Source of the DNA: Dictyostelium discoideum | Taxonomy: Eukaryota | Reading direction: 5' to 3' | Length of the DNA stretch: 64,000 nucleotides | Assembly: GCA_000004695.1 (NCBI GenBank) | Contig: CM000153.2 | Location: forward strand, 1,280,001 to 1,344,000 | In this document: in pieces, positions 7,653 through 53,064 of the stretch | Position numbering within the stretch: the first letter of the stretch is position 1 | Layout of the letters: each line of letters starts with the position of its first letter | Translations under genes and position numbers: made by a program | Notes under the pieces: generated by a model | Databases searched by the model: none | Told to the model about the DNA's origin: nothing | The model's input: only the letters and a program-made list of their open reading frames with translations

Positions 7653-8744
7653 ATGGTTGAAATAAAAGATAAAGAAATTAATAATAATAATAATTATAGT
7701 AAAAAAATTATATTAGCCGTTGGTGGTGTTACAGTTGGTAGTATCTTTGGATATGCATTACAAAAAGGTAATGTTTATTTACCAAGTGTAATTCAAGGAC
7801 AAATGAATTTTACCAATTTTACAATGTTAAAAATGTTTATGACAGCATCTTTAACATCATCATTGGCAATAACATTTTTAAAATCTCAAAAATTAATTGT
7901 ACTTGAAAAGTCTTCAACAATGTATAAAAGAAATATAATTGGTGGATTTATAATGGGATCTGGTATATCATTGACTGGTGCATGTCCAGGCACTGTTTTA
8001 GCTCAAATACCACAAATCAATGGTACTTTATGGACTTTATTGGGTGGTGTTGTTGGTGCAACTCTATTTGGTTTTGTCAATAGTTACATTTCAAAATTAT
8101 TACCATCAACTCAACCAACTTCAAAATCCTCAACCACTGTTTATGAGAAATTTAAGATTTCAATGTCAAAAGCAACAATACCATTCTCAATTATGATTGC
8201 ACTTGTACTCTATTTAATTGAATCTAAATTTCCATGGCAAGTTGATAGTGGTGTATCAAAGAGTATCTCAATATTTGGTTCTATCAGTGAGAGTAAAGTT
8301 TGGTCACCTTATGTTGCTGGTATCACTATTGGCTTATTACAAATCCCAAGTTTCTTGATTTCAAATACGGGTTTAGGTTGTAGTTCTGCATATGTTACAG
8401 TTGGCTCAAAAGTTTGTAATGCCGTTAGTTGTACCGTAGATTACTTTAAAAGTTTTAATACAACCGTTCGTTCAATTTATGGTCCACTATTAAATTTAGG
8501 TATCATTGGTGGTGCTTATTTGGCTTCTCGTTCAAATCCTGCTCCTTTAATTGAACAACTCAATAATCAATCAACTCTAAATCACTTTTTAGGTGGTTTT
8601 GTTTTATTATTTGGTGCTCGTCTTAATGGTGGATGTACTTCAAATGGTTTAACCTCGATGGGTAAATTAGAATTTAGTAGTTTCGTTACAATGGCCTCAA
8701 TGTTTGCTGGAGGTGTTTTAACCTCTTATTTTTTGAATAAATAA
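7653..8744 (+). CDS. YeeE/YedE-family (sulphur/thiosulfate-transport-like, DUF395) polytopic membrane protein, 363 aa.
   Basis: A single ORF carries the two repeated signature motifs GGFIMGSGISLTGACPG and GARLNGGCTSNGL. Multiple hydrophobic segments are predicted. Confidence 0.7.
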   Translation: MVEIKDKEINNNNNYSKKIILAVGGVTVGSIFGYALQKGNVYLPSVIQGQMNFTNFTMLKMFMTASLTSSLAITFLKSQKLIVLEKSSTMYKRNIIGGFIMGSGISLTGACPGTVLAQIPQINGTLWTLLGGVVGATLFGFVNSYISKLLPSTQPTSKSSTTVYEKFKISMSKATIPFSIMIALVLYLIESKFPWQVDSGVSKSISIFGSISESKVWSPYVAGITIGLLQIPSFLISNTGLGCSSAYVTVGSKVCNAVSCTVDYFKSFNTTVRSIYGPLLNLGIIGGAYLASRSNPAPLIEQLNNQSTLNHFLGGFVLLFGARLNGGCTSNGLTSMGKLEFSSFVTMASMFAGGVLTSYFLNK

Positions 8745-9306: not shown

Positions 9307-12300
9307 ATGAGTATAATAAAATTTAATAATAATAGTTTATTTTTATTAATATTTTTATTATTCCATGTTTCATTATCTCTCTCGGCTTTTGACCAACAAC
9401 AACGTAACCAATCAACACTCACTTTCGTTTTTTCAATTTTCTTTTTTCAATTTTTTCTAATTTTTATTTTTTTTTTATTTTTATTTTTAGAAATATCTAT
9501 CGATACACTTATAGGTGTTTATAATTTACCTCCTATAGAAAATAATAATTATTGTGGATTACCAGATAATTTCAAATGTGATATAAATCAAACCACTATA
9601 TTATCAATGTTTGTATTTAAATTATTCTTAGATTTAATTTCATTAAATAATTATTAATTATTGATTATTAAAAAAAAAAAAAAAAAAAAAAGAAATTTAA
9701 GTGGTTCTGAAACAAATAAACCAGTTTTTCCCGATCAAATAATCGGAACATTTAAAAATGTTTCTGAAATTAAAATTTCAAATTCTAATGTCTCATTAGA
9801 TTTTTTTAAAGAATACCCAAATACTTTGTCTACTTTGACATTAGAAAGTTGTGGTATTCCAAATTTCCCACCATCACTAAAAACTTTAAAAAATTTATAT
9901 ATGTACGATTTACTTTTTAGTGGTAATATAACAACAACTTCAATTAATTTTTTAAGTATATTGTAGGTTATTTTTTATTATTTTTATTATTATTTTTTAT
10001 TTATTATTTTATTTTTTTTTTCCTTTCCTTTATCGTTTATTTATTCTAATGAGGAAATAAACTTTTAATATTTTTAATAAATTTTTTAATATTATTTTAT
10101 TTTTTAAAAAATAAATTATCATTTATACTAATAATAACTCTTTTTTTTAAATAGTAAATTAAAATATTCATCAAGTGATCTAATAAGTGATTACCAATTT
10201 ATAAATGATGGTAATAGTGGTGCTACAAAAACCCAAGTAATTTATGAAATAACGATGAACAATATTCATAAATTTTCTAAAAATTCTTTTGCTGAAGTGT
10301 ATGTTCTTTATTTTCTTTTATTTACTACCAACTACTACTATCATTACCAATTATTAATATTATTAAATATAATTTAGAACAATTATTTTAGGAAAATATT
10401 TCAATCCTGATGGTTTAGTAAATTTACAAACAATAAATTCAGCAAAGTTAACAATGATTGATATTGGTCATTTTAATATGCCTATGAATGTGGATGGTCT
10501 TTTCACTTTTAATGGAGCTCAATTAAATTTTAAAAATATTCATTTTAATTTACCAAATGATAAAGATAATTTAGATTTCACAAATAGTACAAAACTATTT
10601 ACTCAAATGGAAATTAATAATTGTACTGGTTTAATAAATTCAACTGGTGATTTAAGAGTTTTACTTAGTAGTGGTATTAAATTTTTGTAAGTTTCTATAT
10701 TTATTATTTTTTTATATATTTTATTTTTTTAAAAAAACTAATTAATTATTATTATTATTATTTAGAGGAATTATAAAGTCAAATTTAATTAAATTACCAC
10801 CATTATCATTTTATTATGGTAAATTAAATGTGTTTGGATTAAAAGGTAATAGAATTACTGGATCATTACCAGATATACCAGAACCAAATGATAAACAACA
10901 AACCATTACACTTGATTTCTCTGAAAATTTATTTACAGGTTCAATACCGCAAAATTATTGTTATCATTATGTGAATATTTCAAATAATTTTTTAGATGGT
11001 CAATTACCAATGTGTTTTATTTGTATATTAAATGATTATTATTTAAGATCGATTGTTGATAATAATGATTTCCCAAATTTTAGCAGAGGTTCAATTAGTA
11101 ATTTCCCACAATGTACTGGTATATCATTTTCAAGTAAATTACCAATTACATCGGGTGGTAATAGTATTGTAAATGGTACAAATTTTGGTTGGAATTCTTT
11201 AAATCCTAAATATTCTCCATATTCAATTACATCAAATCCAAATTTAGATTTATTACTATCAATTCCAAATAAACAAATTTCCATTGGTGTTGTATCATAT
11301 GAAGAATTTGAAATTTTTAAAAAAACAAATTTCACAAGTAATGTTTTCTTTTCAATTCCAAACATTACAATTAAAGTAGAATTGGATGTTTTAAAGCCAG
11401 TGATTAAAGAAGTTCGTTCTTATCCATATTTTAATTCAGGTTATGGTTTTATGATTCTTGGTACTGGTTTCTCTTATCAATCAGAATCTTCATCACAAAC
11501 TATTGTAACATTTGGTAATTATAAATGTTCTTTGGTTTCATCTAGTGGTAATTTCATTGAATGTATAGTTTATGAAAAACAATTGGCCGAAAGAGTTTAT
11601 ACCATTACAGTGAATAATAATCAAACTTTTCTATCTGGTGATTATCAATTTAAATTCCAAAGAACTTATCCATACATTACTGCTATTAATCCACCAACTA
11701 CCAATGGTGGTGTTGTAGTGGTTTTTGGTAGTTATGGTCCAAATCATACAGTTGTTGATCTATTGATTGGTCAACAACAATGTAATATAGAAACTATGAA
11801 TTCATCGGTTATCATATGTTCAATTGGTGGTGGTTCAGGTGTTCAAAATATAAGTTTAACAGTTGATGGTGTAAATTGGTTTGGACTTGAATATTTTAGA
11901 TATAAAGATCAAGAATTGACATGTCCAGGTACACCTCCTTGTAGTGGTAATGGTGATTGTTTAAATGGTTATTGCGTTTGTGATGGTGGTTTTGGTGGTG
12001 AAATTTGTAAACAACTTTTCACTGATGATCCTGTAGTTAGAAGGAATGATACCCTAACACAGATGATTAAGAATGGTTATTCATTTGGTTTTTCAATTAC
12101 AGATATTAGAGAAATTGATTTCAATGGTAAAACAGTTAGACAACATAATTTCACAAGTTGGTCATTAACGCCAGATTCAACCATTTTGAAATGGACTTAT
12201 GTAAATTACTATAGTGGTGGTGGTGAACAAAATTCAATCATTTCATATACAATTGAACAAATTACAGGTACAGCAAAAACTTTTACATTTGCAGGTGAAC

Positions 12301-12881
12301 AATTTACACTTCAACCTGGTTCTTTAAAATTATCAGCAAACATTTCAAATTGGGAATATTTAGGACCACTTAATACTCTACAACTTCAAATTCAATCATC
12401 AGTTAAAGTAGATGCAGCACAAGATGAGAATGAATGTCATCAAAAATCAAATATCAATTCAAATGGTGATGGTGTATCATTAAATTATATTACTATTCAA
12501 AAAGATAAAAATGTATTCAGTGGTAGATTCATTGATAAGGTACTCTCTGATGGTAGACCTACCTTTTCAAAAGTTTCAATCTCTGAACAAACAGAAGATT
12601 CAATCACAGTTTCAATATCATTACCTTATTGTAAAGAATGTTTAATTGACCCTGATTTCTCTGTACTTTTATCTCAAGATGATTCAATCAATTCTTGTGG
12701 TGGAAGCTCTTCAAGATTAAAATGGGTAATACCAACAAGTATTATCTTGGGTTTATTAGGTATCATTGGTATTGCAATTGGTGCTTATTTCTTACTAAGA
12801 AATAGACTTTATGTATCTCGTTCTGGTGTAATTGTTTTAAAAAAATCAACAAAGAGTTCTTCTGATTCTTCTCGTGCTTAA
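9307..12881 (+). CDS. Type I membrane receptor-like glycoprotein A: signal peptide, Cys-capped plant-type LRRs, IPT/TIG-like domains, EGF-like module, TM anchor. About 1,017 aa. Exons approximately 9307..9403, 9491..9608, 9693..9962, 10155..10298, 10378..10686, 10766..12881.
   Basis: Signal peptide MSIIKFNNNSLFLLIFLLFHVSLSLSA. The LRR consensus is present (LxxLxLSxNxLTGxLP; MCFIC). The IPT/TIG-like segment reads YPYITAINPPTTNGGVVVVFGSYG…CNIETMNSSVIICSIGGGSG. The EGF-like module is CPGTPPCSGNGDCLNGYCVCDGGFGGEICK. The C-terminus has a TM helix (IPTSIILGLLGIIGIAIGAYFLL). Intron phases (1,2,2,2,2) are consistent with the paralogue at 13218..16843. Confidence 0.6.
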
Positions 12882-13217
12882 AAAAAAGACAAAAAAAAAA
12901 AGATAAAAATAAATAGATATTTATTTCAATCACCCAAATCGATTTTGTGGTATTTTTTTTTTTTTTTTTTTTGGATAAAAAAAAAGTAGAAATTTCTAGC
13001 TCGGAATAGTGAAAAGTTTTTTTTTTTTGCATTGTTCTGTATAACCTTTAAAAAATGTTTGGAGGTTTTTTTTAAAAAATTCCAATAAACAAATAGATAT
13101 TTTCTTAGATATTTTTTTTTTTTTTTTTATCGAAAAACAAAATATTTTTTTTTTTTTTTTTTTTATTCTCTATTTTCTTTTTTTTTTTTATTTTTTTATT
13201 TTTTTTTAAAACACAAA

Positions 13218-13540
13218 ATGAAATTTGGGACTTTCTTTTTATTTTTATTTTTGTTTATTTCAATTTCATCATGTGAATTACCTTTAAAAGAAAGTAAGAT
13301 TTTTTATTTCACCAACATTCCCCAAAAAAATTATTCTAATCACAAAAAAAAAAAAAAAAAAAAATTTAAAAATTGATAGAGCAAGCAATAGATACTTTAT
13401 TACAAATATATGGTTTAAATTTAATAAACGGTGATTATTGTGGTTCACCCCAATATTTTGTGTGTAATTTTGAAAACACAACGATTACAGAAATGTATTT
13501 ATCAATTTTTAATTTTAAATAATTTAATACCCATCATCCC

Positions 13541-13572
<32 letters not shown>

Positions 13573-14138
13573 CTTTCAATAGTTCATTAAGTGGTAATGA
13601 AATTAATAAAACTATTTTCCCAGATGGAGTAATTGGTAATTTTAGTTTTATAAATAAAGTAAAATTATCAAATTCAAATATCTCAAATGCTTTTTTTAGT
13701 GAATTACAAACCACAAGAAATTTTCAATTTGATAATTGTTTTATTCCAAAATTTCCAACATTCCTCCCCTATGTCCAAGTATTATATATGAATGATGTAT
13801 TTTTTAATGGTAATATAAATTATTCATCATTTTCAGCTATCGGTAATTTGTAATTATTATTATTATTATTATTAATATTATTATTTATTAAAATTATTGT
13901 TTTAGATTCCTAACATTTTTTTTTAATTTTTTATTATTTTTTTTTTTAAAAAAAAAGTACATTGATTTATTCTTCAGGTGATTTAATGACAGATTATCAA
14001 TTGATTGATGATTCACCACTTTATTTTGTTATTTCAAACATTAAAATCGTATTAAATAATATTATAGATTTTCAGTATTCACTTCAAAAAATGTAAATAT
14101 TTAATTATTATAAATAACAACTATTTTATTCCTTTTTT

Positions 14139-14176
<38 letters not shown>

Positions 14177-14573
14177 AAAAAAGAGAAATTTATTTAGGAA
14201 AATATTTTAATAATAGTGATAGTTTTAGAAATATGAGCTTCACTGGTGGCCCAATTTTCATTAGTGATTTGTACTATAATAAACCTATCGAAATTACAAA
14301 TTTAATTGGTCAAAGTGTAATATTAAATTTTGCTAATGTCCAGTTTAGTTTACCGGATAATAGCTACATGGATTTTACTTTCCATTTGGTTAGTTCTTTG
14401 TTTGTATTATTATTTTATTATGGTTATTTTGTTTTTAAATTTTTTTTTTTTATTTTTTTTTTTACTAATAATAAAACCACATCAGAATTTTTACTAATTG
14501 CTCAGGATTAACAAATTCAAATGGTGATTTAATGATAAAAATAGGAAGTGTTAAAACTTTGTAATTATTATTA

Positions 14574-14643
<70 letters not shown>

Positions 14644-14648
14644 TTTAA

Positions 14649-14679
<31 letters not shown>

Positions 14680-16843
14680 AGAACAATAACCAATTCGAAA
14701 TTAAAAAAGATACCTCCATTTTCATTTTATAAAACTTTATCTTCATTGGATATTAGTAAAAATAATATTATAGGTCAGATACCTGAATTATATGAACCAA
14801 TGAATGCATCACAAATAATTGGTATTAATTTAAGTGGAAATAAAATAAGTGGTGAATTAAATCAAAATCATTGTTATCACAATTTAAATATATCCAATAA
14901 CCAATTAACAGGTAAACTTCCAATGTGTTTTATATGTCAATTAAATGATCCACTATTAAGATATAGAATAAATGGAAATAATTTTGAAAATTATATTAGT
15001 AATAGTGAAAATAATTTTCCAATTTGTTCAGGCATATCATTTATTGGGGATGCTTTGATAGAAGTTGGAACAACTAATTCATTTATTAATGGAACTAATT
15101 TAGGATGGGAATCTATATATTATAGTATTCCAGGACAAATATTAAGTGATCCATTGGGATTATTTTTTTCAGTGGAGATTCCAAATAAAGTTTTAAGAAT
15201 TTCAGATCCAAAAAAATTATTCCCAATTGATAAAGCAATTGTGAATTTCGCAATTCCAAATATAAATGTTACAATGCATTTTAAATACTCTGAACCAAAA
15301 GTATATGCTATTACAGTGTATCCATATTATAATCTTGGTTATTTATTTTTAATTAATGGTGCTTCATTTCCATCCCAAAATAGCACTTCCTCAAGAGTTT
15401 CTGTAAAATTTGACAATTTTGATTGTGAACCAACAATAGTTGCCGGTATTGTTATTGAATGTATTGTATATAAATCTCAGTTAGCTGAAAAAATCTATAC
15501 AGTATCGATAACCAATGAACAAACTAGAAAAACTGGTTTTTCTAAATATAAATTTGAAAGAGTTTATCCTTTTGTTTATGCATATAGCTCACCAACGAAA
15601 ATTGGTGGTGTTGTAACATTTTTTGGAAGTTATGGGTCAGTCTTTACCAATGCAACTATTAAAATTGGAAAAGGTACATGTGAAATTATCAATATAAACT
15701 CAACAGTAATTACATGTAACCTAGCAGGAGCTAATTCAATTGGTCCAAGTCCTGCAAATGTTAGTATAACAATTAATCAAGTTAATTGGTTTGTAAATGA
15801 TTATTTCATTTATAATGAAGATAATATATGTCCAGGAACACCAGAATGTAGTGGCAATGGTATTTGTTTTAGTGGTTATTGTGCATGTTCAAATGGTTAT
15901 TCTGGTATTAAATGTGATAAAAGTAAGTAGTTTATTTAATTAATAATTAATAAATAATTAATATAATAATAATAAAAATAAATATTAATTTTTATTTATT
16001 TATTTAATAGTTTTTACAGGCGATATAGAGGTTAAAAAGAATGATACTTTAACAGAAATGATAAAGAATGGTTATTCATTTGGTTTTTCAATTAGAGATA
16101 TTAGAGAAATTGATTTCGATGGTAAAACAGTTAGACAACATAATTTCACAAGTTGGACATTAACACCAGATTCAACGATTATGAAATGGACTTATGTAAA
16201 TAAATTTGAAAATTCAATCATTTCATATACAGTAGAACAAATTACAGGTGCACCAAAGAATTATACATTTGCAGGTGAACAATTTACACTTCAACCTGGT
16301 TCTTTAAAATTATCAGCAAACATTTCAAATTGGGAATATTTAGGATCACTAAATACTCTACAACTTCAAATTCATTCTTCAGTTAAAGCTCAACAAGAGA
16401 ATGAATGTGAACAAAAATCTGAAATTCAATCAAATGGTAATGGTGTATCATTAAATTATATTACTATTCAAAAAGATAAAAATGTATTCAGTGGTAGATT
16501 CATAGATAAGGTGGTTTCAGATGGTAGACCTACCTTTTCAAAAGTTTCAATCTCTGAACAAACTGAAGATTCAATCACAGTTTCAATATCATTACCTTAT
16601 TGTAAAGAATGTTTAATTGATCCTGATTTCTCTGTAATGATCAATCCAAATCCAATATTTAATCCATGTGACAATGATCAACCTTCTAATTTAAAATGGA
16701 TTATACCTGTTAGTGTAATATTAGGTTTGTTAGGTTTGTTTGCTATTTTTGTAATAGTTTTCTTTTTAGCACGTGATCGTATTTATATCTCTAAAAAAGG
16801 TGGAATTATTTTATTAAAAAAACAAAAAAAAACATCAACATAA
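13218..16843 (+). CDS. Type I membrane receptor-like glycoprotein B, a tandem paralogue of gene A with the same LRR–IPT/TIG–EGF–TM architecture. Exons approximately 13218..13293, 13379..13493, 13583..13849, 13958..14092, 14184..14392(?), 14506..14560, 14682..15922, 16020..16843.
   Basis: Signal peptide MKFGTFFLFLFLFISISSC. An exon-by-exon parallel with gene A holds (IDTLLQIYGLNLINGDYCGSPQYFVCNFENTTITEM; SLSGNEINKTIFPDGVIGNF…). The EGF-like module is CPGTPECSGNGICFSGYCACSNGYSGIKC. The C-terminal 260 aa are about 85% identical to gene A, including the TM helix. Gene B has an extra micro-exon (GLTNSNGDLMIKIGSVKTL) and one donor that can only be placed at a weak GTTCTT(14393). An (ATT)n tract lies in intron 14561..14681. 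Confidence 0.5.
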
Positions 16844-21820: not shown

Positions 21821-26170
<4,350 letters not shown>

Positions 26171-29506: not shown

Positions 29507-31425
<1,919 letters not shown>

Positions 31426-32286: not shown

Positions 32287-32339
32287 CAAGCCAATAATAA
32301 TTAAAAAAGTGGAAATAGTTTTTTTTTTTTTAATTTAAT

Positions 32340-35300
32340 TTATTTTTTCTTTGAAGGTAAATTTGATACTTTTGTTGTAACGATATTAATAATTTGATTA
32401 ATTGTTGAGTTTTGAATTTCAGGCATGGATAATATATTTCTAGTAAATTTATTATCAGCCCAATTTTTAACTTCGACAACAAGTAATGAATCAGCACCAT
32501 AATCAATTACCTTTATATCTAAATTGAGTTTGGATTGATCAGTTGAAAGTAGTGATGCAAATTTATCAACGATATCTTGTCTAATTGAAAATTCTTTTTC
32601 GTCAGTCACAGATTCTTTTGATATGATTGGATTTAAAAAGTAATCTAATTTATATGATAGTTTATGATTTTTGTATGTTTTACAAGTAGCGTGGAATTCA
32701 AATGATGCAACCATTTTATTTGTTGATTCGTTTTGATTTTGTAAAAGTAAATCTAAACTACCCCAAACTAAATCTTTTGAAATACCAACCAAACCTTGTA
32801 ATTCAAATAATTTAAAAACAGCATCATTACGTGCAGCAAAACCACCACCTCCCAATAGACCCCAATTGATTGAAATACATGGTAGATTTAATGATTTTCT
32901 ATGTCTTGATAATGCATCTATAAAGCAATTTGAAGCTACATAACCACATTGACGTTGTGATCCTAAAATTGATGTTACTGAACTTGATAAAACAAATTGT
33001 TTTATTGGCCAATTTAATGAAAGTTTATGTAAATTGTAGGCACCCATCGATTTTGCAGAATGAGAGCTAATTAAATGATTCATATCAATCTCTAATGGTT
33101 CACATTCTGCTGGTGAAAATGCATTATGGAATATTGATTCAATTGGTTTAATATCTTTATTTTCTTCAAATAATTGATTAATTGTTTTTAATAAAAGTTT
33201 TTCATCTGAAATATCAACTTGTTTAAAATAGATTTTCAAATTTGTTGATCTTATTCTACCAATTGCTCTTTCTAATTCAAATTTAATTGGTGATTTTGAT
33301 AATACTATTATTGATTCAATAGAATCTGATCTTTTTTCTCTTATCCATTTTATGATTGTATCTGAAAGACCTGCTTGACCTGTTATTAATATTGTTTGAC
33401 CTAAAGTATCTTGATGAATTTTATAATTTGATGAACGATGGATAAAGTTGTGATTATTTGAAAATTCAGGACAATCAATTAAATCAATTCCTTCAGGATC
33501 GTTGAAATTTACAATATTTTTACCAATATGTTTTCTATCACCAAGTGATTCAATTGCTTCTTTAATTTTTGTTACTGGATATACATTGAATGGTATAGTT
33601 TTTAATTTACCACTTGCTAATAAATCAACAATAATTTTCAATACATGTTTATGTTTTCTAAAACCAGCAATGACAGATTCATAAGTCATATAACCAATAT
33701 GATTTTTAAATTTATAAAAATCGGTTGTATCTGTTGTTGTCATATGAGTGATTGATAAATCTATAATTCTACCACCTTGTGAAAGACAATTAAAGTTTGC
33801 ATCCATATAATCTGCTGATAAAGTATTAATAATTAAATCCACACAAATCATTGAAAAACCACCATATTCTTGAGATGGTGCTTTTAGTTCAATTAATTTC
33901 TCTTTAATTAAATATTCATAGTCTGTATTTTTAGTTGAATAAATCTCTGTGATGAAATTACCATAACGATCTTTTAAAAATTGTTTCTTTTCTTCAGAAC
34001 CTACAGTTACAAATAAAAATCCTTTAAATCCATATACTTGTAATAAATCGATACAAGATAAACCAATACCACCACTTCCTGAATGAATTAAAACTGTTTC
34101 AGTCGAACCATGTAAACCTAATCTACCAAGTTCGAATAAACTACAATATGAAGTTAAATAAACCAATGAGATTGATGCTTCAAACCAAGAAATGTTTGAT
34201 GGTTTTAATTCGATTCTGTCTTGATCTACATGAACACTTGATGAAAATGTATGAAAAGTAACTCCCATTACATGATCACCAACTTTGAATTTGGTCACAT
34301 TCTTACCGACTTTGGTAACGATTCCACTTAGTTCATATCCAAATTGTGGTTTTGAAGGATCACCATTTTCATTTGAATTTGCCATATTAATTAATTGACG
34401 ATAAACTAAGAAATCTTTAAAATTAACACCACTTGCCATTACTTTAACTTCAACGAAATTTGGATTCAATGGTAATACTGCTTCTAATGCAAACGTTAAA
34501 TCTGGTTTTAATCTTGAAACTAATTCATTTTTATTTTCAATATATGATTTTGATTTATATTTTAATTTTAAATTTGATTCTAATTTAATTCTTTCATAAT
34601 AAATTTTACCATCACTTCTAATTGAAAATTCATTTTGTGAATGTTTATTTGAATTTGATAATTCTTGAATAATATTAAATAATTTATCACCACCACTAAG
34701 AATATTATTACCTTCAAATTCAAATGAATAAATATTTAATTGATTGAATTCACAAAAGTATCTAAATGAACCAATTAACGATGATCCAAATAAGTTTGAA
34801 GTTTCAAAGTTTATATTTCTTGAAATTAAAATATGTTTACAACCTGAAATTTCATTTTTTAATAAATGTTGATTGATTTCTATATAGTTCATTGAGACTT
34901 GATTAAAGTTATCAACTGTTAATAGATTTACTGACTCAATAAATAATATTAATGATTTATCAGTTAATGGTTGTAATTTGGCATGTTCTTTGAATTTATC
35001 AATTGAATTTATTGCTATTGGAACCACGCCACCACTACCACAGAAAGAAGAACCAATATTAATTTCATCGCAAGTACCAAAAATTATAATTTGATCATAT
35101 TCAGATGTATGCTCTTTACTAACTGAATTAATTGAATTTGATAGATTTGGTTTTTGAACTTGAATTAAATATGGTTCAATTTCACCTGTTGAACATATGA
35201 AATTATTAAATTTCAAATCATTTATTAATAATTGATTCCATTGATTTAGTTTCATTGCACCACTACCAGAATTTAAATAATTAAATGATAACCATTGTTT

Positions 35301-38300
35301 GTAGTTTTCTAAATAATAATCTTCATCTATTGATGTTTGAATGAAATTTGTATCTAAAATTAACAAATGACCGTTTGGAGTTAAAATTTCATTTATAAAT
35401 GAAATTGATGTTTTAATATCTTTAATTTGATTTGTTGTATTTGATAGAATAATTAAATCATAATAAGATGGTGAAAATGATTGTTCTTGTAATTGTTTGT
35501 TTAAATCAATAATTTTAAAGAAACAACTCTTTTTTGAATTAAATAATCTTTCTTTAATTAATAATACTTTTGAATCGGTATAATCTGAAAATACAAATTC
35601 TATATCAATGTTATATGATGGATTATCATTTAAAATTGATTCTAAATTATCATTGATTAGTTTAGTTAATTCACCAACACCACATCCAATTTCTAAAATT
35701 CTAAAAACTATTTTTTCATTTACGATTGGAATAATTGATTTTGAAATTATATCTAAAATTAATTGATGTTGATAAATACCAATATGTGAAATACCTTTAT
35801 TTGAAACAATAGTGTCAACTACTAATAATTCGTTTGGAATGTTATTCAAGAGAAAGTTTGAAACTTGGTTTTGATCAATATGTTTGTGATGTGTTAATAA
35901 AAAGTTGATTGTTAAGAGGATTAAATTGGATCTGATAGTACCAACTTCAACCTCATCCAAGACATATGAATATTTTTCAATCAACTGTTCAAGTGAATTA
36001 TTTTGAAATTCATCAACGGTTAGGTTATTTAATCTTTTCTTTAATATGGAAAAAAGATATGTAGATAGGGTAGATATTGAAATGATATTTGATTGTTGAA
36101 GTTGAAGTTGTTGATTAAAATGTTCTTTCAATATTAATGGTGATTGTAAAATTGAATCTTTTGGTTGAAGACATTGTGAAAATAATTGATTGTTTGGACA
36201 TTCAAGATCAGTTTCACTTTTTGTTGATAGTGTAGATGCAATTGTTACCAATGGAGAATGTAATAGAACAGTGCCATCTTTTAAGAAGCAAGTTGTTTTA
36301 AAATAAATAAAATCACTAAATTGTTTAATAAGCTCAGCATAACAGTAAACGTATTGTTGCTTCACTCTATCTTCTGCAGTTAATGGAACACTTGAAGAAT
36401 AAATTTTTAAATGTTCAATTCTTTCAAAAACAGACGAAGCTGGGTTATCAAAGAAAATACATGGATGTATACATGTATCAATAATGCAAATATTTAAAAA
36501 TGATTCATTATCATAGCTTGAAGTTGGATCCAATGAAACTTTACACAAGCATCTATTATCACCATATGAAGCTTCTTCAATTCTTTGAAATGGTTCTAAT
36601 AGTGAAATGTTTGCATAATTTTTAATTAAATCATATAATTGTTCTCTTTTCAAAGTTGACCAATTACATTGATCACGTATTGATTGAACATCAACTTTTT
36701 TAACTGTTACATCTAAACTTTTCATTAAAATTCTACTATTTGCAGATTGGATCCATTTACCACTTGTTTGATCTTTAAAATTAAATGTTGCTCTATATTC
36801 ATTCTTTGCACTTTTGTAGAGATTAGTTGTAAGAGTTTTTTTTACACCTTCAGTTAATACAAATTGTGATTTAAATTCTAAAAGTGGTATGGTTAAATCT
36901 TGATTTGGGAAAAGTTTTAAAATAATATCCAAATAACCAACTCCTGGGAAAAGTGATTTACCACGAAATTGATGATCTTTTAAGAATCTAAATGGTTCTT
37001 CTTTAATATCGATATATGATGTATATGATATATGTGGCGATGATTCATTTTTATTACCAAGTTGATTTATTGGTGCTCCATTCTTTCTATTGTTTAGTGA
37101 TGAAATACCTTCTCTCCAAAATAATGATTCATCCCATTGATAATGTGGTATTAGATATGAGCATTTCTTGAATGAATTTGATGTTATTTCCGATTTAAAT
37201 TGGGCACTAAAATCGACATTGTAACCAAAACAATAAAGTTGTGAAATTGTTGATTGAATTTCATTAATATCTTCTTTTTTCTTATTTAATGATGATAATA
37301 CACTTATTGAATCTTTGTTTAAAAAGTAATTTGAATTCTTTGGAATCATTTCTTTAACATAATGGTTTAAGGTTGGATGAGGTGATAATTCTAAAAATAT
37401 TACTGAATTACCTAAATCATTTGATTCAATATGTTTGAATATATTTTCAATTGTTTGTTGAAATAATACTGGCTTTCTTAAATTGTCAAATATATAACTT
37501 GAATTATAAGGTGTATTTTTATCGAATTTATTTGATGTGACTGTTGAAAATGTTGTTATAGAAGGTGGTCTTGATTGAATATGATTGGTTGATTCTATGA
37601 TTTCATCTTTGATTATATCTTGTTTTGATGAATGAAATGCTGATGATGTACCTAATAAAGAGTTGAATATTTGTTTATCTTTTAATGATTTTGAAATATT
37701 TAATATATCAAGTTCATTACCACATACAACGATTGATGATGGTGAGTTAAAACATGAAATTTCAATTTCTGGATATTCCTTTGAAAATTGATTATTGAAT
37801 TCTTCAAGATTTAAACTAATTGCTAAAAGTCTTCCAGATCCATTGGTTTTATTTTGAATGGTTGCTCTTTTATATATCACGAAGCATGCTGTTTCTAAAT
37901 CAATCATACCTGAACAAAATGCACTGGCTACTTCTCCTAAACTATGGCCAACTATTATAGATGGTGTGATTCCCCAATGCAAATATAATTTATATAATGA
38001 TATTTGAATCATAAATATAGATGGTTGAGCTAATATTGGTTCATTAATTAGAATTGGATCATCATTAATTGATCTTAGTTTTTGAATGATTGAATATCCA
38101 AAATATTTAAATAGTATTGAATCTAATATATCCATGGATTGTTTATATATTGGTTCATTTTCATATAAATTTAAACCCATTTTTGAATATTGAGGACCTT
38201 GACCACAAAATGAAAATACTAATGGTGGATTAATATCATTTGATTTGATAATATTACCAGATTTATTATTTTTTGTTGAAATAATTTCATTTATATCAAT

Positions 38301-39278
38301 TTTTAAATCATTCCAATCATTACCAATTAAAACTGATCTTTGTGATAATTTGGTTGTTTTTGAATAAACTTGAAACATTGCAAACTCTTCAAAAGTTAAG
38401 CTTTCTGAATATGTATCAATTTCTTCAAGTAGTTTTGATTTGAATTGTTCGAGTGACTTCTTTGAGTTGGTTGAGATTGGTATTAATAATTTTGATTTTT
38501 CATTTAATTTCATAGATGTTTGATTTTTTAATTCTGAAGGTTTGATATATTCAGACAATAAAACACATGCATTTGAACCAGTTATACCAAAACTATTGAT
38601 TGCCATTGATACTTGTCTATCTGGGAATGCTGTTGTTTCTGTACATACTTTAACATTCCATTCTTTGAATTTAATATTTGGATTTGGGTTATTGAAATGA
38701 ATATTCTTTACAAATTGACGATGTTTAAACATTAAACAAACTTTTGCTAATGATGCTACACCTGATGCAGGTTCAAGATGACCAATATTTGATTTAACTG
38801 ATCCAATTAATAATGGTTCTTGTTTAACATTTTTAAAAATATCAGCAACAGCTTCAACTTCGATTGGATCACCTACTTGTGTACCTGTACTATGTAATTC
38901 AAAGAAATCAATATCTTGATATTTCATTGCACCATTGGATGATAAAAATGCATTTTTGATATTAGTTGATTGTGCATTTTTTGAAGGTGCAAAAAAGTTT
39001 GTTTTCTTAAAAGTACCATCTACATTTGAACTACTTCCTTTCATTACACAATAAATTTGATCACCATCTTGAATTGCAAGTGATAATCTTTTTAAAATTA
39101 ATACAACAACACCTTCTGAACGTACAAAACCGTCGGCAGATTCGTCAAATGAATTACATCTACCAGATTTACCTGTAATATTAATTGAATGAAATGATCT
39201 AGTAATATATGGATCTTTTTTTAGAATAATAATAATAAAAATAAAAATAAAAATATTAGAAATATGGAAATGAAAAAC

Positions 39279-39321
<43 letters not shown>

Positions 39322-40136
39322 ACTAATATTATAATAATAATAATTACTTAATAATATATTACAACCAGCTACTACAGAGTAATTTGATTTACCATTAACA
39401 ATTGATTCATATCCTAAATGAACTGCATTTAATGATGATGAACATGCTGTATCAAGTGTTAATGAAGTACCACGTAAATCAAAACAATATGATATTCTAT
39501 TTGCAAATGCACTGAGAGTACCATTAAAAACATTGATTGGTGCTTCATTTTGTTCGAAATTAATAAAAGAATAATCAGTATTTGCGGCACCAACAAAAAC
39601 AGAAGTATTGGTTCCTCTGAGTTTTAAAGGATCAATTGATGCATCTTCAAATGCTTCCCATGTTAACTTTAACATTAATTTAATTTGTGGATCAATTTGT
39701 TTAGCATCAGTTGGATTGATTCCAAAAAACAATGGTTCAAAAGAATGCCAATTCTCTTCCAAATCAATTAATCCTGCGTTCTTATTTGAGATTTCTCCCA
39801 TACTATGGAATGTGTCGCTCCATCTAAATAAATAAAAATAATAATAATTTTAAAAAAAAAAAAAAAAAAAGGAAGGCAATTGTTTGATGAAAATCAAAAA
39901 ATAAGAAAAAATGAAAAAAAAAAAAAAAAAATGAAAAAAAGCAGTGTTAGTTATGATTTTTTTTTTTTTTCATTTTTTTTTTTTTACCTTTCGTTAGAAT
40001 CAACAATTCCATCAAAACCACCAAGCAAATTTTTCCAAAATTCTGAAGGAGAACCCGAGTTACCTGGTAATCTTAGCCCAAGACCAACAATCGCAACTTG
40101 GTTATCATTGTTCTTTTCAATATTTCCTTCAATCAT
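32340..40136 (-). CDS. Highly reducing iterative type I polyketide synthase, copy 1 (2,499 aa), with domain order KS-AT-DH-CMeT-ER-KR-ACP. Exons on the minus strand: 40136..39988, 39823..39348, 39214..32340.
   Basis: KS: exon 1 MIEGNIEKNNDNQVAIVGLGLRLPG…, active-site DTACSSSL, and HSTGTQVGDPIE. AT: GHSLGEVASAFCSG. DH: HQFRGKSLFPGVGYLD. CMeT: LEIGCGVGELT. ER: LIHSGSGGIGLSCIDLLQ. KR: ILITGQAGLSDTII. ACP: IDYGADSLLVVE. Donors GTAAAA(39987) and GTAATT(39347) give intron phases 2 and 1. A (TA)17 tract lies in intron 2. Confidence 0.9.
39285..39318. repeat. (TA)17 dinucleotide microsatellite in intron 2 of PKS copy 1. The copy-2 intron has only (TA)4.
   Basis: Seen directly in the sequence. Confidence 0.9.
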
Positions 40137-40997
40137 TTTAGATTTCAAATTATCTATTTATTATAATACTTGTAACTATTGAAATGAATTATTTAAATGA
40201 GTATTTTTATATCTTCTTTCAAAAAGAAACGAATATTTAAATAATTTTTTTTTTTTTACCTCTATTTATTTTTTTTTTTTTTTTTTTTTTTTTTCTTTCT
40301 TAAGTTAGATAACCACCATTCTTTATAATTTGGATGGAAAATTTTTACAGATAATCATTGGAGGGAACATATATACACGTGCAAATGGGAAAACCCCTTT
40401 CTTTTTAAAACAATAAATAAATTTTAACTTTACATAATTACCTTCGTCCATAAATCCAAATAATAATAAATTTCTAAAATTACTGCTTTAATAAATTTTA
40501 TTGGAATGCTTCCACTTAAATCTTTATTTTGGGGGTGAAAATTTGTTTTTTTGTTTCTTGTTTTTTTTTTTTACCCCTACCACTCCTTGACTTTTTTTTA
40601 ATATCTCCCATTTTTATAATTTCATTTTTGTTTCATATAACCAAAAAGTCAAAAAAAGTTAACTTTTTTTTTTCATAAAATTTGTGATTGGACCACTTCA
40701 AAAATTTTTGCACAAATTATCTATAACTTTTTTTTTGCACTGCAATTGACCTTTTAATCGACTTACCAATTGTTGGTGATTAAAATATAAATAAATAAAA
40801 AATAAAAATAAAATAAAAATAAAAATAAACCCGCCATTGAAAAAAAATTGTTGAAAAGTCTTTATATTGTTTTTTTTTAATTATATAACGATATAGAGGA
40901 TAGAAAAAAAAAAAAAAAATTGTGTAGAAAAAAAAAAATATAAAAAAAAAAAAAAAAAAAAATATAGCTTTAAATTTAAAATTTTATATTAAGAAAA
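40137..40997. promoter_or_regulatory. Bidirectional (divergent) promoter region shared by PKS copy 1 (minus) and P450 copy 1 (plus).
   Basis: An 861-bp spacer lies between the two start codons. It contains blocks conserved with the copy-2 spacer (50598..51359) despite otherwise heavy divergence: ttgtaactattgaaatgaattatttaa, ataaccaccatt, attttattggaatg…ccactt, aaagtcaaaaaaag, aaatttgtgattg.accactt and caattga.cttttaat.cgact.accaatt…gttggtgattaaa. Confidence 0.55.
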
Positions 40998-42607
40998 ATG
41001 GAAATAATTAATGTTTTTTTGTTTCTAATCATTCTTTTCTTGGTAAAAGATTTTGTATGTATTTAAATTTTTATATTTTAGAAAATTATTACAATTTATT
41101 AATTCTTTACATAAAAAAAAAAAAAAATAAAAAAAAAAAGGTTAAAAAAAATAAGAAAATTCATACAAAATCTCCAAGTGGACCAATTGCATTTCCTATT
41201 CTTGGAAATGTTGTTCAAATTAGATTTTGGGAATTATTCAAAATTCAAGAACATGAATTATTTGGTGGTTATAGTAAAAAATATAATGGTGTTGTAAGAG
41301 CATGGTTTGGAGAAAGATTATTTTTTTTTGTTTCAAATTATGATGTTGTAAAGTATTTTCAAAAAGATGAAAACTTCCATAACAGACCATCAGTTTTAGT
41401 TCCAGGTTGGAGATATGCTTCAAGTAATGGGCTAGGTGTAATGAGCTCATCTGATGACAAATGGAAAAGAGCAAAATCAAGTGTTTCGCAATCATTAAGA
41501 GTTCGTACAACTAAAAAATTAATGGAAGAAAAAGCAATTGAATTTATTGATTCACTTGAAAAAATTTCAAATAATAATGAAATTGTAAGTTTTTAAAAAT
41601 AATAATTACAATCAAAATATTGATAACATATTAATTTATTAAATTTTTATTTTTAGTTTTATCCAAAAGGACATATTCAAGGATATGCTTGTTCAATGTT
41701 ATTCAAATATATGTTTAATCAAGATTTATCAGTTGAAAGTGGCATGTCAAGAACTATTGGTAATGCAGTTGAACATGTTTTTGGTAATCTTTCAAAATTA
41801 ACTGCATTTGATTGTTTTGAAATTTTCTCACCACTTTATGATTGGTTCTTTACAAGAAGATTAAAAGGTTGCGATATCGTTAGACAAATAATCAGTAGTC
41901 AAAATGAAAATCATTTAAAGTCAATTGATCCAAGTAAACCAAGAGATTTAATGGATGATTTGTTAATTGAATATGGATTAAATGAAATCACTAAAGAAGA
42001 TACAATGCAAATCAATCAAATTTGTTTTGATATTTTTGGACCAGCCGTTGGTACAGTTACAATCACAATGAATTGGGTAATTTTACAATTATGTAATCGT
42101 CCAGAACTTCAAGAGATTGCATATCAAGAAATTAAAAAAGCTGTCAAAGATGATGAATATGTCAATTTGAATCATAAACAAAATGCCCCTTATATCGTTG
42201 CCTTTATTAAAGAAACAATGAGACTTTGTTCAAATGGATTTGGTTTACCAAGAACTGCTAAAAATGATCAAATTTGTGGTGATTTTTTCATTCCAAAAGA
42301 TGCTATTATTTTTATTAATTATTTAGAAATTAGTCAAAATGAAGAAATCTTTAAAAATGCCAAAGAATTTAACCCAACTCGTTATTTAGATGAATCACTT
42401 CCTGTACCAAATATTCACTTTGGTGTTGGTCAAAGAGCATGTCCTGGTCGTTTTGTCGCAATCGATAAAATGTTTCTTGGAATTTCAAATTTACTTTTAA
42501 AGTATAAATTAAAAACTCAAAATGGTGAAAAAATTGATGATTCAATTCAATTTAGTGTTTCTTTAAAAGCAAAAGATTATGGAATAAAATTAGAAAAGAG
42601 AATTTAG
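40998..42607 (+). CDS. Cytochrome P450 monooxygenase, copy 1 (482 aa). Exons 40998..41054, 41141..41584, 41657..42607.
   Basis: N-terminal TM anchor MEIINVFLFLIILFLVKDF. Lys-rich hinge followed by SPSGPIAFPILGN. ExxR motif (ETMRL). Heme-binding loop FGVGQRACPG. Donors are GTATGT(41055) and GTAAGT(41585); both introns are phase 0. Confidence 0.85.
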
Positions 42608-42761
42608 AACAACAATAATAATAATAAAAATTGTATTTAATGTTTTTATTTTTTATTTTTTATTTTTATTTAATTATTTATTTATTTATTATAAATTAAA
42701 AAGTTTTTTTTAGAACAATAATAATTAAAAAATTGGAAATAGTTTTTTTTTATTTATTTAT

Positions 42762-45700
42762 TTATTTTTTCTTTGAAGGTAAATTTGATACTTTTGTTGT
42801 AACGATATTAATAATTTGATTAATTGTTGAGTTTTGAATTTCAGGCATGGATAATATATTTCTAGCAAATATATTATCAGCCCAATTTTTAACTTCGACA
42901 ACAAGTAATGAATCAGCACCATAATCAATTACCTTTATATCTAAATTGAGTTTGGATTGATCAGTTGAAAGTAGTGATGCAAATTTATCAACGATATCTT
43001 GTCTAATTGAAAATTCTTTTTCGTCAGTCACAGATTCTTTTGATATGATTGGATTTAAAAAGTAATCTAATTTATATGAAAGTTTATGATATTTGTATGT
43101 TTTACAAGTAGCGTGGAATTCAAATGATGCAACCATTTTATTTGTCGATTCGTTTTGATTTTGTAAAAGTAAATCTAAACTACCCCAAACTAAATCTTTT
43201 GAAATACCAACCGAACCTTGTAATTCAAATAATTTAAAAACAGCATCATTACGTGCAGCAAAACCACCACCTCCCAATAGACCCCAATTGATTGAAATAC
43301 ATGGTAGATTTAATGATTTTCTATGTCTTGATAATGCATCTATAAAGCAATTTGAAGCAACATAACCACATTGACGTTGTGATCCTAAAATTGATGTTAC
43401 TGAACTTGATAAAACAAATTGTTTTATTGGCCAATTTAATGAAAGTTTATGTAAATTGTAGGCACCCATCGATTTCGCAGAATGAGAGCTAATTAAATGA
43501 TTCATATCAATTTCTAATGGTTCACATTCTGCTGGTGAAAATGCATTATGGAATATTGATTCAATTGGTTTAATATCTTTATTTTCTTCAAATAGTTGAT
43601 TAATTGATTTTAATAAAAGTTTTTCATCTGAAATATCAACTTGTTTAAAATAGATTTTCAAATTTGTTGATCTTATTCTACCAATTGCTCTTTCTAATTC
43701 AAATTTAATTGGTGATTTTGATAATACTATTATTGATTCAATAGAATCTGATCTTTTTTCTCTTATCCATTTTATGATTGTATCTGAAAGACCTGCTTGA
43801 CCTGTTATTAATATTGTTTTACCTAAAGTATCTTGATGAATTTTATAATTTGACGAAGGATGGATAAAGTTGTGGTTATTTGAAAATTCAGGACAATCAA
43901 TTAAATCAATTCCTTCAGGATCGTTGAAATTTACAATATTTTTACCAATATGTTTTCTATCACCAAGTGATTCAATTGCTTCTTTAATTTTTGTTACTGG
44001 ATATACATTGAATGGTATAGTTTTTAATTTACCACTTGCTAATAAATCAACAATAATTTTCAATACATGTTTATGTTTTCTAAAACCAGCAATTACAGAT
44101 TCATAGGTCATATAACCAATATGATTTCTAAATTTATAAAAATCGGTTGTATCTGTTGTTGTCATATGAGTGATCGATAAATCTATAATTCTACCACCTT
44201 GTGAAAGACAATTAAAGTTTGCATCCATATAATCTGCTGATAAAGTATTTATAATTAAATCCACACAAATCATTGAAAAACTACCATATTCTTGAGATGG
44301 TGCTTTTAATTCAATTAATTTCTCTTTAATTAAATATTCATAGTCTGTATTTTTAGTTGAATAAATCTCTGTGATGAAATTACCATAACGATCTTTTAAA
44401 AATTGTTTCTTTTCTTCAGAACCTACAGTTACAAATAAAAATCCTTTAAATCCATATACTTGTAATAAATCGATACAAGATAAACCAATACCACCACTTC
44501 CTGAATGAATTAAAACTGTTTCAGTTGAACCATATAAATCTAATCTACCAAGTTCGAATAAACTACAATATGAAGTTAAATAAACTAAAGATTGTGATGC
44601 TTCAAACCAAGAAATGTTTGATGGTTTTAATTCGATTCTGTCTTGATCTACATGAACACTTGATGAAAATGTATGAAAAGCACCTCCCATTACATGATCA
44701 CCAACTTTGAATTTGGTCACATTCTTACCGACTTTGGTAACGATTCCACTTAGTTCATATCCAAATTGTGGTTTTGAAGGATCACCATTTTCATTTGAAT
44801 TTGCCATATTAATTAATTGACGATAAACTAAGAAATCTTTAAAATTAACACCACTTGCCATTACTTTAACTTCAACGAAATTTGGATTCAATGGTAATAC
44901 TGCTTCTAATGCAAATGTTAAATCTGGTTTTAATCTTGAAACTAATTCATTTTTATTTTCAATATATGATTTTGATTTATATTTTAATTTTAAATTTGAT
45001 TCTAATTTAATTCTTTCATAATAAATTTTACCATCACTTCTAATTGAAAATTCATTTTGTGAATGTTTATTTGAATTTGATAATTCTTGAATAATATTAA
45101 ATAATTTATCACCACCATCACCACTAAGGATATTATTACCTTCAAATTCAAATGAATATATATTTAATTGATTGAATTCACAAAAGTATCTAAATGAACC
45201 AATTAATGATGATCCAAATAAGTTTGAAGTTTCAAAGTTTACATTTCTTGAAATTAAAATATGTTTACAACCTGAAATTTCATTTTTTAATAAATGTTGA
45301 TTGATTTCTATATAGTTCATTGAGACTTGATTAAAATTATCAACTGTTAATAGATTTACTGATTCAATAAATAATATTAATGATTTATCAGTTAATGGTT
45401 GTAATTTGACATGTTCTTTAAACTTATCAATTGAATTTATTGCTATTGGAACTAAGCCATAGAAAGAAGAACCAATATTAATTTCATCACAAGTACCAAA
45501 AATTATAATTTGATCATATTCTGATGAATGCTCTTTACTAACTGAATTAATTGAATTTGATAAATTTGATTTTTGAACTTGAATTAAATATGGTTCAATT
45601 TCACCTGTTGAACATATGAAATTATTAAATTTCAAATCATTTATTAATAATTGATTCCATTGATTTAGTTTCATTGCACCACTACCAGAATTTAAATAAT

Positions 45701-50597: not shown

Positions 50598-51359
50598 TTT
50601 AGATTTCAATTTATATATTTATTATAAAATTTGTAACTATTGAAATGAATTATTTAATTAAGTAATTTTTTTTTTTTTTTTTTATTCTTTTGAAATATTT
50701 AAATAATATTTTTTTTTAACCTTTAAATTAAATAACCACCATTTTTTATTTTATTTATTTTATTATATTATATTATATTTTTTTCTTTAAATTAAATAAC
50801 CACCATTTAATAAAAATTTGGACAATTGCCGACAGATAATCACTCAAAAAAAAAAAAAAAAAAATTTTATTGGAATGTACCACTTGTAAGATCTTAATTT
50901 TGGGCTAAAATTTGTTTTTTGTTTTTTTTTATTTTTGTTTTTTTTATTTTTTGTTTTTTTTTATTTTTTAATTTTTTTAATTTAAATTAATTACCACACC
51001 TTTTTTATAATATCATTTTTGTTTTTTATAAAAAGTCAAAAAAAGGTTTAAACCTTTAACTTTTTTTAATTTTTTTTTAATAAAATTTGTGATTGAACCA
51101 CTTAAAATTTTTTTGTTTTTCAAATTATCTTTTTTTTACCTGTAATTGATCTTTTAATTAATCGACTCACCAATTAATTGTTGGTGATTAAATCATAAAA
51201 AATAAAAAAATAAAAAAATAAATAAAAGATAAAAACAAAATAAACCTTCCATTTAAAAAAAATTGTTGTCAAGAAAAAAAAAAGAGGAGGATAAAAAAAA
51301 AAAAAAATAATTGTTAAGAAAAAAAAAAAAAAGTTAGTAATACTATATTATTAAGAGAA
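50598..51359. promoter_or_regulatory. Bidirectional promoter region shared by PKS copy 2 and P450 copy 2.
   Basis: It has the same conserved blocks as 40137..40997. The AACCACCATT-containing unit occurs twice here, at 50734..50743 and 50797..50806. Confidence 0.55.
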
Positions 51360-52963: not shown

Positions 52964-53064
52964 AACAATAAAAATAATTGTATTTAATTCAAATTATTAT
53001 CCCAATTCATTGATTTAAATAATTATTATTAATAAAGACTTTTTTTAAAAAAAAAATTATTTTT

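Follow-up and report, generated by a model that had tools for sequence, protein, structure and literature searches.

The window analyzed here is a stretch of 64,000 nt of the Dictyostelium discoideum genome (contig CM000153.2, positions 1,280,001 to 1,344,000), which is AT-rich (about 24% G+C). Two genes, DDB_G0283993 and DDB_G0283995, lie in tandem within it; they are called genes A and B below, and both had already been deposited and automatically annotated. They are located on the plus strand, as are all the features of these genes given below, in a head-to-tail arrangement with a spacer of 336 bp. According to the spliced models obtained from the sequence, gene A (9307-12881) encodes a protein of 1017 aa in six exons (9307-9403, 9491-9608, 9693-9962, 10155-10298, 10378-10686, and 10766-12881), which are separated by five introns of phases 1,2,2,2,2. 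Gene B (13218-16843) encodes 985 aa in eight exons (13218-13293, 13380-13494, 13583-13849, 13958-14092, 14184-14399, 14486-14560, 14682-15922, and 16011-16843), and its seven introns have phases 1,2,2,2,2,2,1. A prediction made earlier from the sequence alone (the original prediction) had described two head-to-tail genes with products of about 1,000 aa, and this description was borne out. The model of gene A is identical to KAM9943178.1, and that of gene B agrees exactly with the AX4 protein encoded by DDB_G0283995 (P0019).

The AX4 model of DDB_G0283993 has 994 aa, and its sole difference from our model is an earlier donor of intron 1, after codon 9; this choice of donor drops residues 10-32, namely the hydrophobic signal peptide. 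In the 1017-aa model, the donor of intron 1 is GTAACC at 9404. Because this model keeps the signal peptide and gives an exon 1 structured like that of gene B, the AX4 model was probably annotated wrongly. Five introns are common to genes A and B in both position and phase (1,2,2,2,2), and two are private to gene B. The original prediction had given these shared phases correctly, but it had counted six shared positions, and gene A has only five introns in all. The two private introns are intron 5 (14400-14485; 86 nt, phase 2, GTTTGT…CATCAG) and intron 7 (15923-16010; phase 1, GTAAGT…TAATAG). The latter was found in all gene B orthologues and in no gene A orthologue.

Intron 5 of gene B was located by enumerating all the GT/AG pairs that leave the frame open. 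Its donor at 14400, GTTTGT, is a hexamer also used by intron 2 of gene A, it is paired with the acceptor at 14485, and this intron reproduces the AX4 protein. The micro-exon that follows (14486-14560) is 75 nt long, encodes IFTNCSGLTNSNGDLMIKIGSVKT, and retains a family-invariant Cys (NCSGL). A micro-exon of 55 nt (14506-14560) preceded by a weak GTTCTT donor at 14393 had been proposed instead, which is incorrect; the GT at 14393 reads AAT in strain FIR. On the other hand, the (ATT)n tract expected in the intron after the micro-exon was confirmed: intron 6 (14561-14681) contains an (ATT)30 microsatellite at 14564-14653 (Tandem Repeats Finder: period 3, 30.3 copies). This tract is longer in FIR (L003 about 15313-15487), where the alignment shows approximately 18 additional ATT units; D. 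citrinum has a degenerate tract, and D. firmibasis has none. Long ATT-type microsatellite expansions occur in the gene B introns of D. firmibasis at about 14980-15700 of L001.

The domain order is the same in both proteins: a signal peptide, a leucine-rich repeat (LRR) solenoid with about 14 repeats, a middle region, two IPT/TIG domains, one EGF domain, a ComC_SSD domain of 205 aa (SSD), a transmembrane (TM) helix, and a short tail. Exactly two hydrophobic segments were found in each protein by Kyte-Doolittle hydropathy, one N-terminal and one C-terminal, which fits a type I membrane topology, and each protein carries 21-22 N-glycosylation sequons. In gene A, the predicted signal peptide (aa 1-27; 9307-9387) is such a hydropathy segment, with an AlphaFold helix at residues 10-21. 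The LRR solenoid of gene A (aa 34-400; 9491-11027, split by introns 2-5) was confidently modelled, with a predicted local distance difference test score (pLDDT) of 70-92 and about 14 periodic beta-strands, and it can be aligned to gene B throughout. It has Cys54/Cys62 on its N-terminal side and the invariant Cys378/396/399/429 on its C-terminal side. The generic LRR models of Pfam matched at or below threshold only; the best model was the dictyostelid-specific LRR_ComC, which scored 28.7 bits for gene B (cut-off 27) and 41 bits for an orthologue of gene A (P0004). The AlphaFold modelling (12 family sequences) was confident for the LRR (residues 30-390) and for two beta-sandwiches (residues 521-695).

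These beta-sandwiches correspond to the two IPT/TIG domains. In gene A (aa 525-690; 11400-11897), they were matched by Pfam TIG in two stretches (E=3.9e-10), and in gene B (about aa 501-672; 15298-15813) they were assigned by a Pfam TIG match at 593-667 and by the alignment to gene A. The best solved matches in Foldseek were the tandem IPT domains of MET and plexin (probability 1.00), followed by the plant LRR ectodomains of TMK3 and SRF6. The EGF pattern CPGTP.CSGNG.C..GYC.C..G..G..C occurs in both proteins: that of gene A (aa 699-727; 11922-12008) has the invariant cysteines C699/705/711/716/718/727, with EGF_TEN/EGF_Teneurin matches below threshold, and that of gene B (aa 678-706; 15829-15915) scored 24.6 bits for EGF_Teneurin (cut-off 24.3). 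The type I topology, the Cys-flanked LRR region, the IPT/TIG domains and this EGF pattern had been read correctly in the original prediction. What it overlooked is the largest conserved domain, the SSD, located between the EGF domain and the TM helix.

The SSD is encoded at 12044-12666 in gene A (E=1.3e-46, 159.5 bits) and at 16039-16637 in gene B (E=1.4e-46, 159.4 bits; cut-off 24 in both cases). Its AlphaFold model has a supersandwich fold (pLDDT 87.8), and the domain ends about 20 residues ahead of the TM helix. The TM helix is at aa 967-990 in gene A (12726-12797), as found by hydropathy and by an AlphaFold helix at 970-990, and at aa 939-962 in gene B (16700-16771), as found by hydropathy. 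It is followed by a cytoplasmic tail of 27 aa in gene A and a tail of 23 aa in gene B. The tail carries a conserved motif, R-x-R-x-Y-x-S…G-x-I-x-L-x-KK, and has no catalytic domain.

The domain content places both genes in a large family. An exhaustive HMMER search based on the SSD gave 769 representative proteins at E<=1e-3, in which the domain is nearly always situated 50-70 residues from the C-terminus. Among the 47 ComC_SSD proteins of similar size, 29 have LRR_ComC and 34 have TIG. Since LRR_ComC occurs in 29 of these 47 proteins, the LRR is a family norm, and not the unusual addition that it had been thought to be. From the predicted combination of LRR_ComC and ComC_SSD, genes A and B are judged to have a ComC-type architecture. 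They resemble ComC, and the Pfam models named after it (LRR_ComC PF24141, Beta-sand_ComC_1st/2nd PF24142/3, and ComC_SSD PF22933), in having an N-terminal LRR solenoid, probably of the LRR_ComC type, EGF, and a membrane-proximal SSD; a signal peptide and a single TM segment are also found in both (for comC, PMC4931340). However, they are paralogues and not comC: two IPT/TIG domains and a single EGF domain, not an EGF array, lie between the LRR and the SSD. In the family member P0072, the order is LRR_ComC, beta-sandwich 1, beta-sandwich 2, EGFs, and SSD. The beta-sandwich domains PF24142 and PF24143, which 6 and 18 of the 47 family members have, gave no Pfam match in gene A or B; the region where they would fall (aa 400-520) has no domain assignment and low pLDDT, and is followed by the two TIG domains.

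As for ComC itself, comC mutants show aberrant aggregation (PMC2873529 Table 1), and comC, whose product is described as having EGF domains, a signal peptide and a TM segment, is confined to group 4 (PMC4931340 Table 3). A homology search with EGF plus SSD gave only three matches, none of them named ComC, and the cluster names of eight family representatives were only "hypothetical protein" or "EGF-like domain-containing protein". Several uncharacterised proteins, namely DDB_G0283623, DDB_G0279859, DDB_G0280511, DDB_G0281231 and D. purpureum DICPUDRAFT_75792, share the family and the overall length with A and B, but with an identity of only 28-43% in the N-terminal region. DICPUDRAFT_75792 is as distant from A as from B (36% identity over the N-terminal part). 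DDB_G0283623 is a third paralogue in the same AX4 record, with an N-terminal region about 43% identical to A and B; its copy in FIY (D. cf. discoideum) lies at L006 10001-13746, and the adjoining gene on the opposite strand encodes 987 aa. Another ComC_SSD locus, AX4 DDB_G0273015 (P0039, 2785 aa), is represented in a newer assembly by two adjacent genes, ACTFIT_002711/002712 (1470 and 1387 aa), which suggests that it is a fused annotation of a tandem pair.

Likenesses outside the dictyostelids are limited to single parts of the proteins. The metazoan receptors MET and plexin share the tandem IPT/TIG domains in a type I receptor stalk (Foldseek E=6e-8 to 1e-6, 17-22% identity over 176-191 columns), but A and B have neither a Sema/PSI head nor a kinase or GAP domain, and the likeness is confined to the two IPT domains. 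The plant LRR receptor kinases TMK3 and SRF6 share a helix and a Cys pair, an LRR solenoid, and then a Cys cluster (weak Foldseek matches, E=2e-3 to 1e-2), but A and B have no kinase domain. Among solved structures, the SSD is most like the luminal domain of GLMP (PDB 8r8q_B), a type I protein that serves a transporter as an accessory subunit. With GLMP, the galactose-mutarotase-like supersandwich domains of glycoside hydrolases and the periplasmic domain of YidC, the identity is 4-12%; the likeness is an analogy of fold only.

When genes A and B are compared with each other, the SSD stands out in a manner that the original prediction had not mentioned. The N-terminal part (residues 1-735 of gene A) shows an amino acid identity of 42% and a synonymous divergence (dS) of 0.93, and the TM and tail part shows 43% and 1.13, whereas the SSD (residues 742-947 of gene A) shows 89% and 0.17. 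The contrast in synonymous differences between the SSD and the rest is highly significant (Fisher p=4e-15). At the nucleotide level, a tract of about 620 bp, coinciding with the coordinates of the SSD given above, is about 92% identical between the two genes, versus about 60% in the flanks. Its borders are sharp, and the 5' border lies 28 nt after intron 7, which only gene B has; heterology caused by this intron may limit the tract there.

Comparison with orthologues clarified the origin of this mosaic. Two features were found in the synonymous sites of the SSD. One is that the dS between orthologues is normal there (0.26-0.30 to D. citrinum and 0.50-0.62 to D. firmibasis), and thus synonymous constraint does not explain the similarity of A and B. 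The other is that these sites group by species, not by paralogue: genes A and B of the window differ by a dS of 0.17, those of D. citrinum by 0.13, and those of D. firmibasis by 0.35, and in all three lineages the dS is smaller within a genome than between orthologues of different species (bootstrap 94.5-100%). Furthermore, 29 biallelic sites in the SSD are species-specific and yet common to both paralogues, 22 of them at third codon positions, while 11 sites are fixed between the paralogues across the three species, mostly at first or second positions. Because paralogues within a genome are closer than orthologues between species in three lineages, the best reading of these sequence data is that non-allelic gene conversion has occurred repeatedly, within the SSD-coding stretch only, and that selection has kept a few paralogue-specific residues. 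The A-B duplication itself is older than the divergence from D. firmibasis.

Replacement of the domain in one ancient event, by exon shuffling or by a single conversion, might also have produced a mosaic. The sharp borders of the tract, with the 5' border adjoining a gene B-specific intron, are what such an event would leave, and the amino acid identity of the SSD still slightly favours orthologues. However, after a single event the A-B dS should be equal to or larger than the orthologue dS everywhere, and it was found to be lower separately in the D. discoideum complex, D. citrinum, and D. firmibasis; moreover, both paralogues differ together at D. discoideum-only sites (5) and at D. citrinum-only sites (6). 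We therefore regard a single replacement as unlikely.

Strong purifying selection alone, acting without conversion, is somewhat less likely still. The SSD is indeed the most constrained part of the protein: its ratio of nonsynonymous to synonymous divergence (dN/dS) is 0.10-0.23, indicating strong purifying selection, and it is 79-81% identical to A and B even in the distant paralogue DDB_G0283623. The persistence of the eleven paralogue-specific sites in three species also points to selection. Nevertheless, selection on the protein does not account for a dS five-fold lower inside the tract than outside, in a region where the orthologue dS is normal, or for the grouping of paralogues by species at synonymous sites in three lineages, including the 22 third-position changes common to both paralogues within a species. 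As the SSD of DDB_G0283623 shows a dS of 0.5-0.8 to A and B, this third paralogue is placed outside the recent A-B exchange. The reading of repeated conversion within the SSD is retained.

Outside the SSD, the proteins evolve fast: dN/dS is 0.2-0.9 in the LRR, middle and TIG regions. We also compared positions 1-22262 of the window with strain FIR (L003). Coding divergence is 2-3% across the whole 20 kb, and it reaches 6.5-7.8% at 15001-16000, within gene B. The dS of genes A and B (0.04-0.10) is as in the neighbouring genes. Gene B shows an excess of nonsynonymous change, with dN/dS of 0.46-0.88 outside the SSD, TM and tail, versus 0.02-0.04 in the neighbours. Two explanations of these values were considered and rejected. 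One is deep allelic divergence of the kind seen in tgrB1/C1: at an unlinked locus, an AX4-like strain and FIW show the same divergence of about 3%, and hence the divergence between the window and FIR is strain-wide, not locus-specific. The other is positive selection: an 88-codon exon of gene B has a dN/dS of 1.24, but the domain partitions remain at or below 0.94 in six comparisons. The values indicate that the evolution of the gene B ectodomain, as judged from these substitution ratios, is relaxed or partly adaptive, and not a balanced hyper-polymorphism of the Tgr type.

FIR and FIW, both labelled D. discoideum, show about 3% coding divergence from AX4-like sequence at two unlinked loci. 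The published mean nucleotide diversity is 0.003 (bioRxiv 10.1101/2025.10.22.684067), and the window-FIR divergence is about ten times that. FIR and FIW may belong to a divergent lineage.

The original prediction had assigned the architecture to the polymorphic Tgr kin-recognition family. Tgr proteins have a TM segment and IPT/Ig-like E-set repeats, and their genes often form head-to-head pairs (bioRxiv 10.1101/2025.10.22.684067; PMC3188802). Genes A and B, like TgrB1/TgrC1, encode dictyostelid type I surface proteins with IPT/TIG folds (two such domains and a TM anchor), occur as clustered paralogues, and have fast-evolving ectodomains (dN/dS 0.4-0.9 in the LRR and middle regions). In the middle region of gene B, two D. 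discoideum strains share an identity of only 88%, and interlocus gene conversion has been reported for tgrB paralogues as well (bioRxiv 10.1101/2025.10.22.684067). However, the published Tgr definition, by which A and B are set apart here rather than by sequence comparison with named tgr genes, includes neither LRR, EGF nor ComC_SSD, all of which are present in the A/B ectodomain, and all the 769 SSD-based homologues and all the full-length homologues carry ComC_SSD. Unlike Tgr pairs, which are head to head with a shared promoter, A and B are head to tail. Furthermore, tgrB1/C1 are extremely polymorphic, whereas A and B have the background dS between strains and hence no deep balanced alleles; the proposed check of polymorphism between isolates thus gave a genomic background value. 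No domain has a dN/dS above 1. It is therefore very improbable that A and B are an LRR-capped offshoot of the Tgr family working like tgrB1/tgrC1, and the ComC-type assignment is preferred.

Gene B had also been suspected of being mis-spliced or decaying. Its surroundings and structure are conserved: the A-B pair and the flanking genes, including the orthologue of DDB_G0283991 on the left, were found in FIR, FIY, FIZ, D. citrinum, and D. firmibasis. In the window, this left-flank gene (Sulf_transp) is the open reading frame (ORF) at 7653-8744, which matches AX4 DDB_G0283991 exactly. When the exon structure was projected on FIR, the frame remained open with the same seven GT…AG pairs in gene B; FIR and D. 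citrinum have all eight exons open, and D. firmibasis has exons 2-8 open. In a four-genome alignment including the window, the donor GTTTGTATT, the acceptor TCAG|A and an indel-free 75-nt micro-exon are kept in FIR, D. citrinum, and D. firmibasis. For the gene B orthologue, the annotations give 723 aa in D. firmibasis (L001 13600-16400) and 949 aa in FIR (L003 14001-17640); because the upstream exons are present and open there, these short annotations are judged to be truncated models, that is, differences of modelling. For gene B, dN/dS lies at 0.10-0.21 within the SSD and at 0.4-0.9 in the other parts, with dS values reaching 0.7. Although the extra micro-exon with a long (ATT)n in the next intron, a nonsynonymous divergence exceeding that of gene A, and the shorter annotations might suggest a pseudogene, this is hardly credible for a gene in which a normal GTTTGT…CAG intron yields the annotated 985-aa protein, the splice sites and frame are conserved as above, and dN/dS is below 1 in every domain. 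To judge from its sequence, gene B, which is intact in six genomes, is not decaying.

Several other features were noted in the window. A tandem segmental duplication of about 10.4 kb occupies 32292-42622 and 42716-52978 (96-97% nucleotide identity). In each copy, the minus strand has an ORF of 2234 aa for a type I polyketide synthase of the highly reducing kind (KS-AT-DH-MT-ER-KR-ACP), and an ORF for a cytochrome P450 (303 aa) on the plus strand forms a divergent pair with it. In D. citrinum, a P450 gene and a polyketide synthase gene come directly after gene B. Two long ORFs on the minus strand, at 21821-26170 (1449 aa) and 29698-31425 (575 aa), gave no Pfam match at E<=1e-5. The region at 30-32 kb has an unusually high GC skew (+0.41).

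Taking these results together, we consider it probable that genes A and B are two intact tandem ComC-family genes for N-glycosylated type I surface proteins, of which the SSD has been repeatedly homogenised, and that these proteins would have a role in adhesion or recognition. Several points weigh against this interpretation. The link to ComC, itself drawn from predicted domains, goes through Pfam models that are named after ComC, and gene A itself has no LRR_ComC match in Pfam at E<=1. Residues 395-521 are poorly modelled by AlphaFold, with low pLDDT. The NG86 estimates of dS near 1 are imprecise in an AT-rich genome, and hence the age of the duplication is uncertain. The Logan contigs found for the two genes are collinear with the genome, introns included, and so represent unspliced genomic DNA; no cDNA for either gene was found among them. 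A search of a literature library by the identifiers DDB_G0283993 and DDB_G0283995 gave no paper mentioning either. Finally, the identity between the SSD and GLMP is only 8%, which makes GLMP a fold-level lead and not functional evidence.

By analogy with comC, the A and B proteins may be adhesion or recognition receptors, or co-receptors, through which cells communicate during development. The variable ectodomain, consisting of the LRR, middle and TIG regions, would bind ligands, and the conserved SSD, with its galactose-mutarotase-like supersandwich fold, would be the module that attaches to a common partner in the membrane or to a common glycan. Because the tail of 23-27 aa has no enzymatic domain, signalling would go through partner proteins. 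A more elaborate scheme is a long shot: genes A and B, perhaps together with DDB_G0283623, might form a two-component recognition system parallel to TgrB1/TgrC1 but mechanistically distinct, in which diversifying LRR/TIG heads engage in trans either with each other or with a variable ligand, and the SSD, kept identical by conversion, serves as a shared docking module that links A and B in cis to one membrane partner, in the way that GLMP is coupled to its transporter. If this were true, the domain-limited concerted evolution would be the genomic signature of a shared SSD partner.

The domain-limited concerted evolution described here is new but unsurprising, and it reveals no new kind of system. 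The analysis also corrects the annotation of both genes, namely the AX4 model of DDB_G0283993, which lacks the signal peptide, and the truncated gene B models of D. firmibasis and FIR. The ComC_SSD family is a large and almost wholly uncharacterised set of dictyostelid surface proteins, in which comC is the only named and phenotyped member that we encountered. Within this family, the pair illustrates how a receptor can evolve, with the ligand-facing part diverging fast and the membrane-proximal module being held by selection and gene conversion. Since the SSD is kept constant by both of these, it would be the functionally shared part of the family, and thus a sensible target for finding partners.

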